From Squalus acanthias (lineage: Eukaryota), in contig CM059431.1 of assembly GCA_030390025.1 (NCBI GenBank), positions 101,930,001-101,994,000 of the forward strand: DNA of 64,000 bases. The letters are read 5' to 3'. Shown here piece after piece: positions 45,050-57,243 of this stretch. Positions within the stretch are counted from its first letter, which is position 1. The number at the start of each line of letters is the position of its first letter. Position numbers and translations under genes: made by a program. Under the pieces are notes generated by a model that did not search any database, had not been told where the DNA came from, and saw nothing but the letters and a program-made list of their open reading frames with translations.

Positions 45050-45880
45050 TACAGAGCTGCAGTGTTCCTAATGTCCACCGGAGGGCCCTCAAACATTATG
45101 TTAATGTTAGAAATTCATCAATTCAAATTCCTGGCATTCAAATTAATTTAAATAAGGGTTGGGTGAGCGAGATGGACTTGAAATGCTGGAATTGACATTC
45201 ATAGTCCCTACTTAAAGTAAGCATCTAATATGTTTACTATGTTGTTACGTGTGATTTGATAAACACATTGTTAATTGCAGTCGGCATAATTGTGAAGTGT
45301 TTCCTTGTTTTTGTATGATTTTTGAGCTACCAGGGCTCTTTGGGCCTGAATTTGCGGTCGCAGGCTTTGTGCGGGGAAATGGCCCCCGATCTGCAAATAA
45401 AATCCCCGCCTACCTTTTGCCTCGGGATCCACGGAGACTCGCGCTCCTGGGCCTCTACGCGTATGGGATTGGGGGTAATATACTCGCATGGATTGAGGAT
45501 TGGTTAACGGACAGAAAACAGAGAGTAGGAATAAACGGGTCATTTTCGGGTTGGCAGGCTGTAACTAGTGGGGTACCGCAAGGATCAGTGCTTGGGCCTC
45601 AGCTATTCACAATCTACATCAATGATTTGGATGAGGGGACCAAATGTAATCTATCCAAGTTTGCTGATGATACAAAGCTGGGTGGGAATGTAAGTTGTGA
45701 GGAGAATGCAAGGAGGCTTCAAGGGGATATAGACAGGCTAAGTGAGTGGGCAAGAACATGGCAAGTGGAATATAATGTGGAGAAATGTGAAGTTATCCAC
45801 TTTGGTAGGAAAAATAGAAAAGCAGAGTATTTTTTAAATGGAGAGAGATTGGGAAATGTTGGTGTTCAGAGGGACCTGGG

Positions 45881-48800
45881 TGTGGTAACACAATACAGCT
45901 TCCTGTGACTCGAACTTTATTGCATCACTTCCTGTGATTAGTCCAGGATAAATACTGGACTGATCAGTTGAATCCTGGAGAGGCATAGAGTAAGACCTCT
46001 TTTGTATGTAGCACCTTTTTAGTTGATTAAAGCTTACTTTAAGTTCACCACGTGTAAGGCTCATTCTTACGACAATTTAATCAACTTTGAAAAACTTCGC
46101 ACTCAAACTTTTTGGACGAACTCGGAACTAAGGATCCAGGGAATCACCCATCATGGAAAACATCCTTAAACCATCGCGTCTTGACTTGGACCCAAACACC
46201 CCAGCAGCCGGTAAGGTGTGGAAACACTGGTATCGCACGTTTGACAATTTTCTCGAATATTGCAAGGCTGATGATGACTCAAAGTTGCGGATACTCATCA
46301 ACTGTGTCACCCCAAATGTATTTCAGTATGTCGAGGAATGGGGCAGTTACGAGGAGGCAATTCGGACGCTTAAAAGACTATATACTAAGACACCGAATGA
46401 GGTCTATGCCAGACATCTACTAGCTACAGCCCAACAAGGGCCGGAGGAATCCATTGATAAATTCCTCCAAGAGCTTCGCAGACTTAGTATGGACTGTAAC
46501 TTTCAGGCGGCCTCAGCTGAGCTGTACCGTGAAGAAATGATCCGTGATGCTTTCATCTGCGGGCTTGCCTCCCCATTTATACGCCAGCGTCTACTGGAAA
46601 GTAAGACACTTGAGCTTCAGAGAGCTTATGACATGGCTTGCTCTCTAGATCTGGCAAAAAGAAATGCAGACCTTTATACAGTGCCCAGACCTCGGTCTGC
46701 TGCCTTAACTACAGTCAGGCAATTTAAGAGGCCACAGGTGAACTCTATTAGGGAGGACTTTATCCCTGACGATCAATCTGATGACTTCACTGATGAAGAG
46801 GATGATGACCCCACTGTGGCAGCCTCTTGGCAATCTAAGAAATGCTTCTTTTGTGGTGATGAGTTTCACCCTCGGAAATTCTGCCCTGCTCGCAATGCGT
46901 TTTGCAGTCATTGCAACAAAAAGGGTCATTTTGCAAAGATTTGCCTATCAAGAGCCTCTACGAGGGCTTATCAAGCTAAGTCCTACCGAACTGCCCCGGT
47001 AAGGGCCTATCAAGATGTTCCGGCTAAAATCTATCGTGCTTCCTCTCGGGTTTTCTCTCGAAGAAACACACCTAGAGTTTCAGCCACTCTTTGTGCAACG
47101 ACACCAATTACAGCTGCTTGTCCTCAGAACCTATTCCATGCAGCTACAAAAGCATCAATTAATGGACATACTTTAGATGCCTTAATTGACTCAGGTAGCA
47201 CTGATAGTTTCATTAGGGAACAGATTGTTGCAGAGTTAAAGCTACATGTTTTCCCATCAGACCAGGCAATTGCGATGGCTCAGTCATCACTTAATACCAG
47301 AATTTCTGGCTTTTGTATGGTTGAAATAACACTTAATGGTCACAGGTATCCCTCCACCCGGCTTTCGGTGCTCAAGGACTTATGTAGTGATCTTATCTTA
47401 GGGCTGGATTTTCAAAAGCAGCATAAGAAGCTCACCATTGAGTTCGGCGGATCCAAACCTGAACTCACTATTTCTAATATACGACCTCGATTACCGTTCT
47501 GTGCATTGTCAGCAGCTTCACTGGATGAACCCTCACTGTTTACCAGTATCCCTCCTCGATGCAAACCGATTATAACAAAGTCACGACGTTTCAGTCAGGA
47601 AGACCAGTCTTTTATTGCGGCTGAGATTTCTCGGCTTTTAGCAGAGGATATCATCGAGCCTTGTTCGTTGCCATGGCGCGCCCAGGTCGTTATTGTTAAG
47701 AACCCTCTACAACCTCACAAGAAACGGCTGTGCATTGACTATTCACAGACCATCAATCAATATACGGATTTGGACGCATACCCATTGCCGCGCATCGATG
47801 ATATGGTTAATAAACTGGCTGAGTACACGGTGTTCTCAACATATGATCTGAAAAGTGCCCATCATCAGGTACCCTTGAAGGTCTCAGACAAGCAGTATAC
47901 GGCCTTTGAAGCCAATGGACGGCTGTATCAATTTTGTCGCCTCCCCTTTGGGGTCACTAATGGAGTGGCTGTCTTCCAGCGAGCAATGGATGACCTGGTC
48001 AAACAGGAAGACTTGAAGGATACGTTTCCTTATCTGGACAATATTACTGTCGCAGGTCGCAATCAGCGGGAACATGACGCCAATCTCCAACGATTTTGGG
48101 ATGCACTCCAGCACCGTAATTTGACATTAAATGCGGCTAAATCCATTGAGTCACAACCAACCATCAACATCCTTGGCTATTGTGTGGGCAATGGCATCAT
48201 TAAACCTGACCCTGAAAGGCTTCGCCCACTCCAAGAACTCCCGCCACCTAAGAATCCGGCCTCCTTGCGCCGGGCCCTCGGCCTGTTTGCATACTATGCT
48301 AAATGGATTCCTAACTTCTCGGGCCGAATCCAACCTCTACTGAAGGCCAGCACATTCCCACTAGACACAGCGGCTGTTGCAGCCTTTAACCTCCTGAAAA
48401 AACAGTTGGAGAAAGCGGCTCTTCTCTCCATCGATGAGAGTCTTCCTTTTGTTGTTGAGTGTGATGCCTCGGAGGTGGCGATCTCGGCCACTCTGAATCA
48501 GGAAGGTCGTCCGGTGGCATTTTTGTCCAGGACTTTTCAAGGGGCTGAGCTACATTATCCTCCAGTCGAGAAAGAAGCTACAGCCATCATAGAGGCAGTA
48601 CGGAAGTGGACTCATCTCCTAGCTCGCCAGCACTTTACCTTAATCACGGACCAGCGATCGGTCGCCTTCATGCTCGATAATCGAAAACGGACCAAAATTA
48701 AAAATAATAAAATCCAGCTTTGGCGGCTGGAATTGGCCTCTTTTGGTTACACCATCCACTATCGACCTGGCAAGGAGAATGTGGCTCCGGATACCCTCAC

Positions 48801-50360
48801 ACGAGCATTCTGCTCCGCCATGGCACCCTCTACGCTCGTAGACATCCATGATGGGTTGTGTCATCCGGGCGTTACTCGCATGCTACACTTCGTGCGGTCC
48901 CGAAATCTCCCATTCTCTACCGGGGATGTAAAGAAGATGTGCTCGGACTGCAGAGTCTGTGCGGAATTGAAACCTCAGTTTTTCCGCCCCTCGGGTGGTA
49001 TACTCATACATGCGACCCAGCCAATGCAACGGCTTAGCATCGATTTTAAGGGGCCGTTGCCCTCTTCAACTCGCAACACTTATCTATTGACCATGGTCGA
49101 TGAGTATTCCCTTTTTCCGTTTGCCTTTCCCTGCCCCAATATGCTGACGACCACGGTTATCAGCTGCCTTGAGCAGGTATTTGCTTTCTGTGGCATGGCA
49201 TCCTATGTTCATTCGGATCGGGGCCCTTCTTTTATGTCAGGAGAACTCAAGGCCTATCTCTCGGAACGGGGTATTGCTGCCAGCAGAACGACGCCTTATC
49301 ATCCGGTCGGGAATGGGCAAGTCGAGCGTTTTAACGCTATCATCTGGAATGCGGTACGTCTGGCTTTGAGATCTCGGGGCCTACCCAACCAGCAATGGGA
49401 AGCAGTACTTCCAGATGCATTACACTCCACACGGTCCCTTCTTTCGACCGCCACAAATACGACGCCTCATGAACGGTTCTTCCGATTTCAGCGTCGCTCA
49501 TCCTATGGGATATCTCTCCCGTCGTGGCTGACTGCACCGGGACCAGTGCTACTCCGAAGATATGTCCGGGCGTCTAAGAATGACCCCCTGGTAGATGAGG
49601 TTGAGCTCACTGACGTCAACCCTACCTACGCCTATATTCGGTATCCTGACGGTCGGGAATCTACCGTGTCATTGCGGGATCTGGCTCCCTGCCCGCCGAA
49701 ACATAGAGGGACACCAGGGGATGATATTGTACCAGGCACATCTCTGGGCTCGCCAGGTGCCTCTCATCACGATCTGGATCTGACGCCGGCTGGTACCTCA
49801 CTCCAGCGTGCCGACCTGGGGCAGACTGACTATGAGCCCGTCGGGGCTTGCACGCGCAGCCACGATCCACCCTGTACCGTACGCTCGGAAACGGATCTGC
49901 CACAGCCCTGCCCGACACCCGTTCGGGCACCAGTACACAGTCAGGATCGTCCTGACCCCTCACAGAGCGGGCTGGACCACTCGGACTCTGGTCCACGGCC
50001 CGTGGCGGGTAAACGGGCTAGGGGCCCTCTACCGCTACGAGAACCCAAACGGGTGCGGCTCTCCCTCGTCCAGCGGCTACGAAATGGAGGGAGAATGTGG
50101 TAACACAATACAGCTTCCTGTGACTCGAACTTCATCCCGGCCTCCTAATCTTTTGGGGGGGGAGAATGTGGTAACACAATACAGCTTCCTGTGACTCGAA
50201 CTTTATTGCATCACTTCCTGTGATTAGTCCAGGATAAATACTGGACTGATCAGTTGAATCCTGGAGAGGCATAGAGTAAGACCTCTTTTGTATGTAGCAC
50301 CTTTTTAGTTGATTAAAGCTTACTTTAAGTTCACCACGCGTAAGGCTCATTCTTACGACA
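45881..50360 (+). mobile_element. Full-length Gypsy/Ty3 LTR retrotransposon
   Basis: LTRs 45881-46074 and 50167-50360 (194 bp, TG...CA, one T/C mismatch); TSD CTGGG (45876-45880, 50361-50365); [15 protein letters not shown] before the 3' LTR. Confidence 0.98.
46153..50103 (+). CDS. Gypsy Gag-Pol polyprotein, 1316 aa, single uninterrupted ORF
   Basis: Two CCHC knuckles (CFFCGDEFHPRKFC, CSHCNKKGHFAKIC), protease LIDSGS, RT (LPFG, YLDN), RNase H (CDAS..E..TD..D), integrase HHCC and D-D-E (IDFKG, SDRG, VERFN) in Gypsy order. Confidence 0.97.
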   Translation: MENILKPSRLDLDPNTPAAGKVWKHWYRTFDNFLEYCKADDDSKLRILINCVTPNVFQYVEEWGSYEEAIRTLKRLYTKTPNEVYARHLLATAQQGPEESIDKFLQELRRLSMDCNFQAASAELYREEMIRDAFICGLASPFIRQRLLESKTLELQRAYDMACSLDLAKRNADLYTVPRPRSAALTTVRQFKRPQVNSIREDFIPDDQSDDFTDEEDDDPTVAASWQSKKCFFCGDEFHPRKFCPARNAFCSHCNKKGHFAKICLSRASTRAYQAKSYRTAPVRAYQDVPAKIYRASSRVFSRRNTPRVSATLCATTPITAACPQNLFHAATKASINGHTLDALIDSGSTDSFIREQIVAELKLHVFPSDQAIAMAQSSLNTRISGFCMVEITLNGHRYPSTRLSVLKDLCSDLILGLDFQKQHKKLTIEFGGSKPELTISNIRPRLPFCALSAASLDEPSLFTSIPPRCKPIITKSRRFSQEDQSFIAAEISRLLAEDIIEPCSLPWRAQVVIVKNPLQPHKKRLCIDYSQTINQYTDLDAYPLPRIDDMVNKLAEYTVFSTYDLKSAHHQVPLKVSDKQYTAFEANGRLYQFCRLPFGVTNGVAVFQRAMDDLVKQEDLKDTFPYLDNITVAGRNQREHDANLQRFWDALQHRNLTLNAAKSIESQPTINILGYCVGNGIIKPDPERLRPLQELPPPKNPASLRRALGLFAYYAKWIPNFSGRIQPLLKASTFPLDTAAVAAFNLLKKQLEKAALLSIDESLPFVVECDASEVAISATLNQEGRPVAFLSRTFQGAELHYPPVEKEATAIIEAVRKWTHLLARQHFTLITDQRSVAFMLDNRKRTKIKNNKIQLWRLELASFGYTIHYRPGKENVAPDTLTRAFCSAMAPSTLVDIHDGLCHPGVTRMLHFVRSRNLPFSTGDVKKMCSDCRVCAELKPQFFRPSGGILIHATQPMQRLSIDFKGPLPSSTRNTYLLTMVDEYSLFPFAFPCPNMLTTTVISCLEQVFAFCGMASYVHSDRGPSFMSGELKAYLSERGIAASRTTPYHPVGNGQVERFNAIIWNAVRLALRSRGLPNQQWEAVLPDALHSTRSLLSTATNTTPHERFFRFQRRSSYGISLPSWLTAPGPVLLRRYVRASKNDPLVDEVELTDVNPTYAYIRYPDGRESTVSLRDLAPCPPKHRGTPGDDIVPGTSLGSPGASHHDLDLTPAGTSLQRADLGQTDYEPVGACTRSHDPPCTVRSETDLPQPCPTPVRAPVHSQDRPDPSQSGLDHSDSGPRPVAGKRARGPLPLREPKRVRLSLVQRLRNGGRMW

Positions 50361-50822
50361 CTGGGTGTCCTTGTACACGAATCACAAAGTTAACATGCAG
50401 GTACAGCAAGCAATTAGGAAAGCAAATGGTATGTTGTCCTTTATTACAAGAGGATTTGAGTATAAGAGTAAAGACGTCTTACTGCAATTATATAGGGCCC
50501 TGGTGAGACCACACCCAGAGTATTGTGTACAGTTTAGGTCTCCTGACCTAAGGAAGGATATACTTGCCATAGAGGGAGTGCAACAAAGGTTCACCAGACT
50601 GATTCCTGGGATGGGGGGATTGTCCTGAGGAGAGATTGAGTAGACTAGGCCTATATTCTCTAAAATTTAGAAGAATGAGATGTGATCTCATGAAAACATA
50701 CAAAATTCTTACAGGGCTTGACAGGGTAGATGCAGGGAGGATGTTTCCCCTGGCTGGGAAGTCTAGAACCAGGGGTCACAGTCTCAGGATAAGGGGTCGG
50801 CCATTTAGGACTGAGATGAGGA

Positions 50823-54154: not shown

Positions 54155-54197
54155 GTGACGGGGCCTCGGTTTAACCTCTCGTCCGAAAGACGGCACC

Positions 54198-55234
54198 TCC
54201 AACAGTGCAGCGCTCCCTCAGTACCGCCCCTCCGACAGTGCGGCGCTCCCTCAGTTCCGACAGTGCGGCGCTCCCTCAGTACTGCCCCTCCGACAGTGCG
54301 GCGCTCCCTCAGTACTGCCCCTCCGACAGTGCGGCGCTCCCTCAGTTCCGACAGTGCGGCGCTCCCTCAGTACTGCCCCTCCGACAGTGCGGCGCTCCCT
54401 CAGTTCCGACAGTGCAGCGCTCCCTCAGTACCGCCCCTCCGACAGTGCAGCGCTCCGACAGTGCGGCGCTCCCTCAGTACCGCCCCTCCGACAGTGCGGC
54501 GCTCCCTCAGTACCGCCCCTCCGACAGTGCGGCGCTCCCTCAGTGCCGCCCCTCCGACAGTGCGGCGCTCCCTCAGTGCCGCCCCTCCGACAGTGCGGCG
54601 CTCCCTCAGTGCCGCCCCTCCGACAGTGCGGCGCTCCCTCAGTGCCGCCCCTCCGACAGTGCGGCGCTCCCTCAGTGCCGCCCCTCCGACAGTGCGGCGC
54701 TCCCTCAGTGCCGCCCCTCCGACAGTGCGGCGCTCCCTCAGTGCCGCCCCTCCCGACAGTGCGGCGCTCCCTCAGTACCGCCCCTCCGACAGTGCGGCGC
54801 TCCCTCAGTACCGCCCCTCCTACAGTGCGGCGCTCCCTCAGTGCCGCCCCTCCCGACAGTGCGGCGCTCCCTCAGTGCCGCCCCTCCGACAGTGCGGCGC
54901 TCCCTCAGTGCCGCCCCTCCGACAGTGCGGCGCTCCCTCAGTGCCGCCCCTCCGACAGTGCGGCGCTCCCTCAGTGCCGCCCCTCCGACAGTGCGGCGCT
55001 CCCTCAGTGCCGCCCCTCCGACAGTGCGGCGCTCCCTCAGTGCCGCCCCTCCGACAGTGCGGCGCTCCCTCAGTGCCGCCCCTCCGACAGTGCGGCGCTC
55101 CCTCAGTGCCGCCCCTCCGACAGTGCGGCGCTCCCTCAGTGCCGCCCCTCCGACAGTGCGGCGCTCCCTCAGTGCTGCCCCTCCGACAGTGCGGCGCTCC
55201 CTCAGTACTGCCCCTCCGACAGTGCGGCGCTCCC
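54198..55234. repeat. 33-bp CpG-rich minisatellite derived from a Deu-SINE (CCGACAGTGCGGCGCTCCCTCAGTGCCGCCCCT), ~30 copies
   Basis: Begins directly after SINE sequence gacggggcctcggtttaac..gaaagacggcacct; the unit equals the next SINE segment (compare 52115-52145). Confidence 0.92.
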
Positions 55235-55239
55235 TTCAC

Positions 55240-56164
55240 CATTGTCGCTAAGTCCCGCCCCTTGCATGCTACAGGGCCCCCTCGCGGCCGGCGGCCCTCC
55301 ATGTTCTGGAAGCCCCGCCCCCTGCCAGCCACAGCGCCCCCTGGCGGCCCTCTCTGCGCCGTGCTCCCTCTGCCTTCAGCGCGATGACGTCGATGCGTAA
55401 GTCCCGCCCCCTCCGTTCTATCGCCAACGCCTGTCCCCCCTTGGAAACGCCCCAACCCGTTGACTTGGTAGTCGCCCCGCCCCCTCTCCGCCGTCGACAG
55501 CGGCTTCTGGCGGCCGGCGGTTCGCAATGTGTGTAAAAAAAAGCAAAACACTGCGGATGCTGGAAATCGGAAATAACAGACAGAAAAATGCTGTAAACGC
55601 TCAGCGGGTCAGGCAGCATCTGTGGAGAGAGAGACAGAGTTAACTTTTCAGGTCGGTGACCGTTGGTCAGAAACGGTCTCAACGTTTTGCCCTTGCAGAG
55701 GCTCCTACGTGGTGACGTTTTGACGTTACCATTAAGTCCTGCCCCCGCAGCCTGGCCCTCCCCTCCGCCCACAGCGGCCTCTGGCGGCCGGCGCTTCTCA
55801 ACGCGCGGCGCTCCCACGGCAAGGAGCGAGGTGACGTTGCGGTCAAGCCACGCCCCCGATCGTCGGCCACGCCCCCTCACCGCCCTCCACCGACAGCGTC
55901 CTCACCGGGCTGGAGGTTCTCGACGTACAGCAGGCCCTGCGCGGTGACGTTACGGTTAAGCCACGCCTCCCTCTCCTCCCGGGCCCCTGGCCCCGCCCCC
56001 TCCCCGCCTTCCGCCCACAGCGCCCTCTCCGGCCGGCGGGCGCCCCTCGCTGTGCGGCAGCGGCGCGGCCCCCGGCTGAGAAGATGGCGGCGGCCGAGTG
56101 AGGCGAGCGGCTGCCGCGCTCCGCTCTGCTCCCGGTCACTCCGGGCCCTTCGCTCCGCCTTCAG
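55240..56164 (+). promoter_or_regulatory. STK24: STK24 CpG-island promoter and putative non-coding exon 1 (ends 56164)
   Basis: Many GC boxes, TGACGT sites, CTCF-like sites, YY1 motif AAGATGGCGGC (56081), donor CAG|gtgcga at 56164/56165. Confidence 0.7.
55536..55671 (-). mobile_element. Penelope pLTR fragment inside the promoter
   Basis: Reverse complement resembles 44917-45045; hammerhead core decayed. Confidence 0.75.
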
Positions 56165-56364
56165 GTGCGAGGCCCGATTTTCACCTCGCGCTCAACAGGA
56201 AGCGCGGTGCGGGAGCTCGGGGCGGGGGGTGAGGGGAAGAGAGAGAGAGAGGCCGCGGGGAAACAGGCCGCGCCCCACCCCAACCCACCCCACCCGGAAA
56301 CACGCAACGGCCCCGGTGGGGACCGAGGCTGGGGGGGTGCCTGGGGGCCTGGGACTGTGCTGGG

Positions 56365-56982
56365 GGAGGATCTGTGGGTGGGGGGATCTGTGGGGGGGTT
56401 GGGGTGGGGGGATCTGTGGGGGGGTTGGGGCTGGGGGGGATCTGTGGGGGGGGGGGTTGGGGCTGGGGGGATCTGTGGGGGGGGGTTGGGGCTGGGGGGA
56501 TCTGTGGGGGGGGGTTGGGGCTGGGGGGATCTGTGGGGGGGGGTTGGGGCTGGGGGATCTGTGGGGGGGGGTTGGGGCTGGGGGGATCTGTGGGGGGGGG
56601 GTTGGGGCTGGGGGGATCTGTGGGGGGGGGTTGGGGCTGGGGGGATCTGTGGGGGGGGGGTTGGGGCTGTGGCTGTGGGGGGGGGATCTGTGGGGGGGGT
56701 TGGGGCTGGGGGGATCTGTGGGGGGGGGTTGGGGCTGGGGGGATCTGTGGGGGGGGGTGAGGCTGGGGGGATCTGTGGGGGGGGGTTGAGGCTGGGGGGA
56801 TCTGTGGGGGGGGGTTGGGGCTGGGGGGATCTGTGGGGGGGAGTTGGGGCTGGGGGGATCTGTGGGGGGAGGTTGGGGCTGTGGGAGGAGGTTGGGGCTG
56901 GGGGGAGGTTGGGGCTGTGGGGGGAGGTTGGGGCTGGGGGGATCTGTGGGCGGGTTGGGACTGGGGGGATCTGTGGGGGGGC
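56365..56982. repeat. G-rich minisatellite (~27-bp unit GGGGGATCTGTGGGGGGGGTTGGGGCT) in STK24 intron 1
   Basis: About 20 units with variable G-run lengths. Confidence 0.92.
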
Positions 56983-57243
56983 CTGAGACAGGCTGTGACG
57001 GTTCAGGGTGGGCTGTGATGGGACCGGGCTGTACTGACTCTTCTTTCCTTATGTTGCAGGCTTGGTCAGTCGGTGTCCCCCCAGGCGGGGAGGAGCTGTT
57101 GTGGTTGATTCAGGCCTGCTCTTCGCTCTTGATTCCTGGTCTTTGACGGGTTGGTGTCCCTCAGCCCCCGGCTTCTCTCTCAGCCCCAGGAGCCACTTCA
57201 CTCACTACCGAGCAGAGAAGGAATAACCGGCGGCAGTGGTGCC

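Follow-up and report, generated by a model that had tools for sequence, protein, structure and literature searches.

A Ty3/Gypsy-type long terminal repeat (LTR) retrotransposon of 4480 bp occupies positions 45881-50360 of the stretch of the Squalus acanthias genome that we analysed (contig CM059431.1, positions 101,930,001 to 101,994,000; 64,000 nucleotides (nt), hereafter the window), and its primer-binding site (PBS) is the exact complement of a segment of its own LTR. We propose, with a probability that we put at about 85%, that the lineage to which this element belongs primes its own minus-strand DNA synthesis in a manner like that of the fission-yeast element Tf1, and the pairing itself is, as judged from comparison of the sequences, a trait of that lineage. 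What the sequences show is the complementarity, its fixed place at the end of the LTR and its two-sided maintenance across a wide lineage.

The PBS, TTTAATCAACT (46076-46086; all parts of the element described here lie on the forward strand), is the exact reverse complement over 11 nt of AGTTGATTAAA (46021-46031), a putative self-primer that lies inside the 5′ LTR and includes the hexamer ATTAAA. The PBS does not start with TGG, and a lone spacer A (46075) separates it from the CA that ends the LTR; the first TGG beyond the LTR is found at 46113, 39 nt downstream. The first-pass annotation, made from the letters of the window alone, had placed a self-complementary PBS at these coordinates, and all of this is borne out on the sequence. 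The duplex cannot be extended at either end, as T46020 opposes T46087 and G46032 opposes A46075. In the minimum-energy fold GTAAG (46054-46058) pairs with CTTAC (46066-46070), as part of a stem-loop in the unique 5′ region (U5) of the LTR that spans 46052-46073 in the predicted folds, and a second small stem-loop, GCUUA/UAAGU (46032-46044, with its two strands at 46032-46036 and 46040-46044), starts at the first base past the 5′ arm. The fold of 46021-46090 has a minimum free energy of -13.7 kcal/mol and a z score of -2.4.

Could such a match be a coincidence? Of 20000 shuffles of the LTR, 13 yielded an exact complement of at least 11 nt between the LTR and a segment beginning 0-3 nt past it, and so did 8 of 20000 when the 26 nt on the downstream side were shuffled instead. 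For the 405 nt that precede gag, none of 50 shuffled versions contained a hairpin of such size. Chance complementarity would be favoured by the A+T-richness of the sequences and by the occurrence of hairpins with arms of 10-11 nt elsewhere in the loci that we fetched, but it has to contend with the shuffles for the window alone (13/20000) and with pairing at the same place in 28 of 29 relatives, described below. In our judgement the comparative data refute it, and the likelihood that we leave to it is negligible. The arm and the PBS are identical in all 30 additional genomic copies fetched, so covariation cannot be shown within the window family itself.

Pairing and covariation among relatives

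A profile built from 24 polyproteins yielded 73 loci in metagenome contigs; no relative was found among viral contigs. A locus was considered evaluable when the start of gag and the leader were present, which applied to 27 loci matching from residue 30 or earlier and to L063 and L095, in which an LTR, a leader and an ATG come after a pol 3′ end (n = 29). Four loci without a leader hairpin (L066, L072, L078 and L102) have matches that begin at residue 47 or later and were therefore excluded as non-evaluable. Exact LTR-to-PBS pairing of 11-17 nt just 5′ of gag is present in 24 of the 29 evaluable loci and imperfect pairing, in which G-U pairs or 1-2 mismatches occur, in four more (L090, L103, L106 and L111); a single locus, the degenerate copy L089, has no pairing. 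The mismatches are found where copies look old: the LTRs of L103 are 83% identical and those of L090 94%, and L103 has lost the arm from its 5′ LTR while keeping it in its 3′ LTR. When the 400-nt upstream region of each locus was shuffled 50 times, L047 and L049 each gave one equally long hairpin and most loci gave none. Since hairpins with 10-11-nt arms are also present elsewhere in these same loci, the argument rests on position and recurrence and not on arm length alone.

The position is indeed narrowly set. Wherever both LTRs define the boundary, the PBS begins 0-2 nt past the terminal CA; among the 25 tabulated rows, CAA stands immediately 5′ of the PBS in 21 and a PBS starting with TGG occurs in none. 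The loops between the arms measure 24-70 nt, and most of the 22 relatives that were folded have a stem that starts at the first base past the arm, of the type RCCU..AGGY as judged by eye, so that the presumed cut would sit at a helix junction. For L044, L052 and L071, the true LTR-PBS junctions were located by a hairpin scan; the apparent LTRs returned by self-BLAST were rejected as coding-region repeats of circularly permuted contigs. As a separate observation, 0-6 nt separate the end of the PBS from the gag ATG in L047, L049, L053, L054 and L065, the two being directly adjacent in L054 and L065, and in those leaders the predicted duplex could possibly occlude the start codon and act as a switch between translation and reverse transcription.

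Is the pairing maintained when the sequence changes? The 11-nt cores adjoining the loop comprise 17 distinct sequences. For the covariation alignment 18 of the 25 rows were used, after removal of L076 and L079, which are identical to L049, and of L048, L054, L071, L074 and L100, whose duplexes are in a shifted register and all five of which pair exactly over at least 11 nt. Over a 13-bp helix 97.4% of the 234 cells pair, compared to 78.8% when shuffled, and none of 500 shuffles reaches the score. Nine of the 13 pairs show two-sided changes (40 cells), four are invariant and none varies on one side only; G-U intermediates are absent from the 234 aligned cells. Sliding the partner by 1-3 columns lowers the pairing to 17-53%, and RNAalifold, with no structure supplied, returns exactly the same 13-bp helix. 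The sister loci L047 and L049 illustrate the pattern with a matched G>T and C>A change. All 22 distinct pairs keep the pairing through position 11, and 18 of the 22 keep it at positions 12 and 13; by position 18 it has fallen to 5 of 22, near chance. Young copies show neither G-U nor one-sided states, as would fit a PBS recopied from the primer in each cycle. The first-pass annotation had suggested comparing the PBS with the LTR motif across related elements; in that comparison the pairing is kept through two-sided change, and the relatives strongly support its main claim, namely that the element has no tRNA site and that a PBS complementary to its own LTR is the signature of self-priming.

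The same arrangement is found in a second family of the S. acanthias genome (family B), which came from a genome search with a 58%-identical catshark protein and of which 51 matches were scored. At the DNA level its coding part shares about 69-72% identity with the window element, and the unique 3′ region (U3) of its LTR is unrelated. In family B the pairing extends over 13 nt, between CAAGTTGATTAAA within the LTR and TTTAATCAACTTG one base past it. A U5 stem stands at the equivalent place in different letters, and the sequence 3′ of the PBS differs between the two families. An open frame of 1315 codons is retained in 31 of the 51 scored copies, and the three copies with flanks (L041-L043) have LTRs of 215-216 nt that are 99.5-100% identical. 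Family B (loci L031-L043, for example L041:902-5411) is as young as the window family.

The most immediate alternative primer is a host molecule: a tRNA fragment or other small RNA might bind the PBS, the match to the LTR being incidental. Primers consisting of half a tRNA are known for some Copia elements, according to excerpts of one source (PMC6317226), and our tRNA comparison is partial, being a weak test based on 32 host tRNA genes from RF00005 that cover only Lys, Cys and Thr. Among the 8 distinct sequences, of these 3 isoacceptor types, the best match to the PBS is 6 nt. Across the 17 cores every change of the PBS goes with a change in the LTR segment of the same element; a conserved host RNA cannot follow this, and neither a host tRNA nor another host RNA can explain it. 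The covariation appears to leave this explanation nearly refuted, and we consider it very improbable.

A different possibility is that the hairpin is an RNA structure and nothing else, serving to occlude the poly(A) signal, to package the RNA or to control translation, with priming carried out by something else. The overlap of the arm with ATTAAA in the window element and the 3′ arm that abuts or overlaps the gag ATG in some relatives (L054, L065) would be in line with such a function. Yet there is no alternative PBS, given that priming at the nearest TGG, 39 nt past the LTR, would shift the LTR edge; the duplex lies 0-2 nt from the LTR end in all relatives, a placement that mere structure does not need; and the 234 cells hold no G-U intermediates. 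We therefore regard a purely structural hairpin as improbable, though less so than a host-derived primer.

A model for priming and the start of the RNA

How might self-priming proceed? A minus-strand primer defines the U5 edge, so the end of the duplex that abuts the LTR marks where the 3′-OH of the primer must be. In the genomic RNA, 46021-46031 would fold onto the PBS at 46076-46086, one base beyond U5, and the resulting 11-bp duplex would close a 44-nt loop holding the two small stem-loops. We infer that the RNase H of the element, or another nuclease, would cut after A46031, where the duplex meets the first stem-loop, whereupon reverse transcriptase (RT) would extend the freed 3′-OH through A46075 and U5 up to the cut, giving about 44 nt of minus-strand strong-stop DNA. 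This DNA would presumably be transferred to the 3′ end of the RNA by way of the short remainder of the repeat region (R), and plus-strand synthesis would copy the primer, as in the retroviral and Tf1 scheme, such that each cycle would write the PBS anew, complementary to the primer.

Several points weigh against this model or against parts of it. The longer leader (45975-46152) is not unusually stable (z +0.6), and the host tRNA comparison, with its 8 distinct sequences from 32 genes, is very partial. The rows of the alignment were picked for having a hairpin, which makes the pairing percentage partly circular; the position, the recurrence (28/29) and the two-sided changes are not circular. 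A search of sequencing runs turned up no RNA run that contains the stretch, and one raw RNA run gave 0 reads over it, which is no test of expression, of the transcription start or of the poly(A) site. Finally, a putative TATA-like box in the window element, GATAAATA (45947-45954), stands 73-74 nt 5′ of the primer segment and suggests that transcription may start about 45-60 nt upstream of that segment, in which case the primer would be internal and a second cut would be needed.

This last point bears on whether the primer is the 5′ end of the RNA or an internal piece of it. Self-priming from an internal primer, a possibility raised in the first-pass annotation, would have transcription begin about 45-60 nt 5′ of 46021; the hairpin would hide the ATTAAA of the 5′ LTR from polyadenylation, and the cut after 46031 would free a long capped primer. 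It is consistent with the presence of ATTAAA within the arm and with the conservation of ATAAATACT, which is common to the window family (at -73) and family B (at -90 from the arm), two families whose U3 is otherwise unrelated. Against it, the TATA-like motif is absent from most other relatives, which have only 85-160 nt of LTR upstream of the arm, and complementarity ends at 11-17 nt. A long primer copied past the PBS would moreover be expected to leave a mismatched tail unless a second cut took place. An A (17/18) stands 11 nt and a G (18/18) 10 nt from the predicted cut; both are nearly invariant, in a YYAGT-like context that we take to resemble an initiator. We hold the internal primer to be a real but less probable form of self-priming, and somewhat favour the arrangement of Tf1, in which the primer would here be formed by the RNA's 5′-terminal 11-17 nt.

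The poly(A) signal is of limited help to the internal primer as well: AAUAAA or AUUAAA occurs in only 7 of the 17 primer cores, and poly(A) masking can thus not be the general reason for the pairing. In some relatives, such as L045, a canonical hexamer is located in the loop instead. In the window element, masking of the poly(A) signal may be a side benefit of the hairpin. Contigs were also inspected for ends of transcripts. Three contig runs break at LTR edges like DNA, with no transcript starts or ends visible. The contig ends that fall within the 3′ LTRs of L046 and L050 were considered as poly(A) sites and rejected: both terminal repeats are exactly 127 nt (L046:1890-2016/5679-5805; L050:803-929/4717-4843), starting at the first base of the LTR and stopping at the contig end, which looks like an effect of the assembler's k-mer limit and not like a biological boundary.

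The element and its insertion site

The window element, a Ty3/Gypsy LTR retrotransposon, was inserted recently. Its LTRs (45881-46074 and 50167-50360), direct repeats of 194 nt that begin with TG and end with CA (GACA at the end of the 5′ LTR), are identical at 193 of 194 positions (99.5%), the sole difference being a T at 46053 against a C at 50339. Identical 5-nt target-site duplications, CTGGG, flank it on the left (45876-45880) and on the right (50361-50365), and it interrupts the RT open reading frame (ORF) of a long interspersed nuclear element (LINE), the halves of which (45255-45880 and 50366-50628) join in frame across the target duplication. A single gag-pol ORF of 1316 amino acids (aa; 46153-50103) encodes a Gag with two CCHC knuckles followed by protease, RT, RNase H and integrase. 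This domain order, together with the TG..CA LTRs and a target duplication in the range of 4-6 bp, agrees with Ty3/Gypsy (Metaviridae) elements, and the closest match of the polyprotein among solved structures is Ty3 Gag-Pol (E 2e-57); for Gag, ESM Atlas returned nothing beyond generic CCHC and gag clusters. The family is abundant in the 3.7-Gb host genome, where the LTR-leader stretch recurs in 40 or more copies at 99-100% identity (40 scored of 273 candidates).

The polypurine tract (PPT), GGGGGGGGAGAA (50155-50166), adjoins the 3′ LTR. Its last 5 nt and the first 37 nt of the LTR (50162-50203) are present a second time as an exact 42-nt duplicate (50091-50132), which sits 71 nt upstream of the real copy, is preceded by the purines GGAGGGAGAA and contains the stop codon of the ORF. 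The duplicate is fixed in the family, as a 241-nt stretch is 100% identical in 40 of 40 scored genomic copies, and it may represent a second plus-strand primer site or the relic of a strand-transfer slip. Outside the element, the window contains two tandem arrays, at 54189-55381 and 56306-56985, whose periods are about 33 and 29 nt.

Lineage and known self-priming systems

The last 267 aa of the window polyprotein have no Pfam match, to a Chromo domain or otherwise, at E values up to 10, and PF00385 is absent from the precomputed Pfam domains of all 120 listed protein relatives. The two CCHC knuckles (C231 C234 H239 C244 and C251 C254 H259 C264) are invariant in the 24 aligned polyproteins. 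The lack of a chromodomain and the presence of two CCHC knuckles set the lineage apart by its features from the Tf1/sushi kind, in support of the view of the first-pass annotation that a different lineage is involved. Named protein relatives come from an anemone, a nematode, crustaceans, a mussel, a tunicate and the catshark, and features and host range make it probable that the lineage belongs to the Mag cluster, as a SURL/Jule-like member. The Mag cluster (Mag, SURL/C-clade and Jule) resembles it in its two CCHC knuckles, short LTRs and wide range of animal hosts. Jule is reportedly 4.8 kb long with LTRs of 202 nt, to which the window element is close in both size and LTR length. According to one source, chromoviruses usually have one CCHC knuckle, and Mag and Micropia/Mdg3 have two (PMC2577118); Mag-cluster elements have been described from cnidarians, protostomes and deuterostomes (PMC2774666), and the LTRs of a Mag C (SURL) training set have a mean length of 174 nt (PMC3601003). 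In one respect the lineage differs: for Mag-lineage elements of mosquitoes a published table gives PBSs for tRNA-Ser, tRNA-Leu or tRNA-Arg (PMC3286476, Table 1), and the lineage described here has no tRNA-type PBS.

Two further features of the polyproteins deserve mention. In most members the integrase tail ends in a conserved basic motif, RRSxRxxxPPxRYG, where chromoviruses carry their chromodomain, and this motif could be a signal for targeting or nuclear import. The relatives P0044 and P0089 carry the extra Pfam domains PF08395 and PF00632 (HECT), respectively, and are probably chimeric gene models of a retrotransposon and a host gene.

What would self-priming in this lineage mean? We lean slightly towards the broad statement that an ancient, animal-wide Gypsy lineage that has no chromodomain and probably corresponds to the SURL/Jule-like part of Mag replicates without tRNA by recopying a primer of 11-17 nt that is taken from its own LTR and ends in AAA. 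If this is true, self-priming arose or was kept independently of Tf1/sushi, insect cousins within the Mag cluster use tRNA-Ser or tRNA-Leu instead, and self-priming is a common feature of the genomes of animals, this one of 3.7 Gb with its two abundant young families among them; tRNA-independent priming would then be a major metazoan strategy and not a rarity. Such elements would also be beyond the reach of silencing by tRNA fragments, repression by 3′ tRNA fragments that target the PBS having been reported (PMC7472051). For annotation pipelines, self-priming offers a reason why elements of this kind "lack a PBS"; a recent survey that relied on tRNA matching alone gives a tRNA PBS for 1151 of 1512 elements (PMC13524379). 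The two-sided changes without one-sided states would constitute a natural record of a primer being copied into the PBS, and the mechanism is open to direct test in a single vertebrate genome that has two abundant families of near-identical copies. Searches of the Creative Commons and bioRxiv literature found no report of self-priming in an animal Gypsy lineage that lacks a chromodomain, and an earlier description elsewhere is possible.

To our knowledge, self-priming has been proven only for the Tf elements of fission yeast. Butler et al. (2001) is said to be the primary paper on self-priming in the sushi group. Excerpts of the self-priming literature deal with Tf1, Tf2 and Tj1, with the Tf1/sushi group of yeast and vertebrates, with Tcn1-like chromoviruses and with the plant TAR Copia elements (PMC6317226, PMC4600332, PMC7175516, PMC6934838). 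For the vertebrate Tf1/sushi group, sushi-ichi and its relatives, self-priming is reported as cited in excerpts of two of these sources (PMC6317226, PMC4600332); those elements are chromoviruses, in contrast to the present lineage with its two CCHC knuckles and no Chromo domain. For the Tcn1 clade of fungi and mosses and for TAR Copia it was predicted from element architecture, again according to excerpts (PMC6317226, PMC7175516). The prediction from sequence is common to those elements and to ours, but they belong to other lineages, chromoviruses or Copia, and to other hosts.

The closest parallel is with Tf1 and Tf2 of Schizosaccharomyces pombe and Tj1 of S. japonicus, which likewise have a PBS beside the 5′ LTR that is complementary to the same LTR, with extra stem-loops between primer and PBS. 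Tf1 has a single gag-pol ORF, as does the window element. The shortest duplex found here, 11 nt, equals the primer of Tf1, which excerpts of three sources describe as 11 nt long and released by an RNase H cut between bases 11 and 12 (PMC7175516, PMC4600332, PMC5341516). In Tf1 the primer consists of the first bases of the RNA; for our lineage the indirect signs are divided over such a terminal position, which we somewhat favour. In contrast to Tf1, Tf2 and Tj1, the present lineage resides in animal hosts and combines two CCHC knuckles with the lack of a chromodomain; the LTR of the window element is much shorter (194 nt), with 44 nt from primer to PBS, and the predicted priming end is an invariant AAA/UUU.

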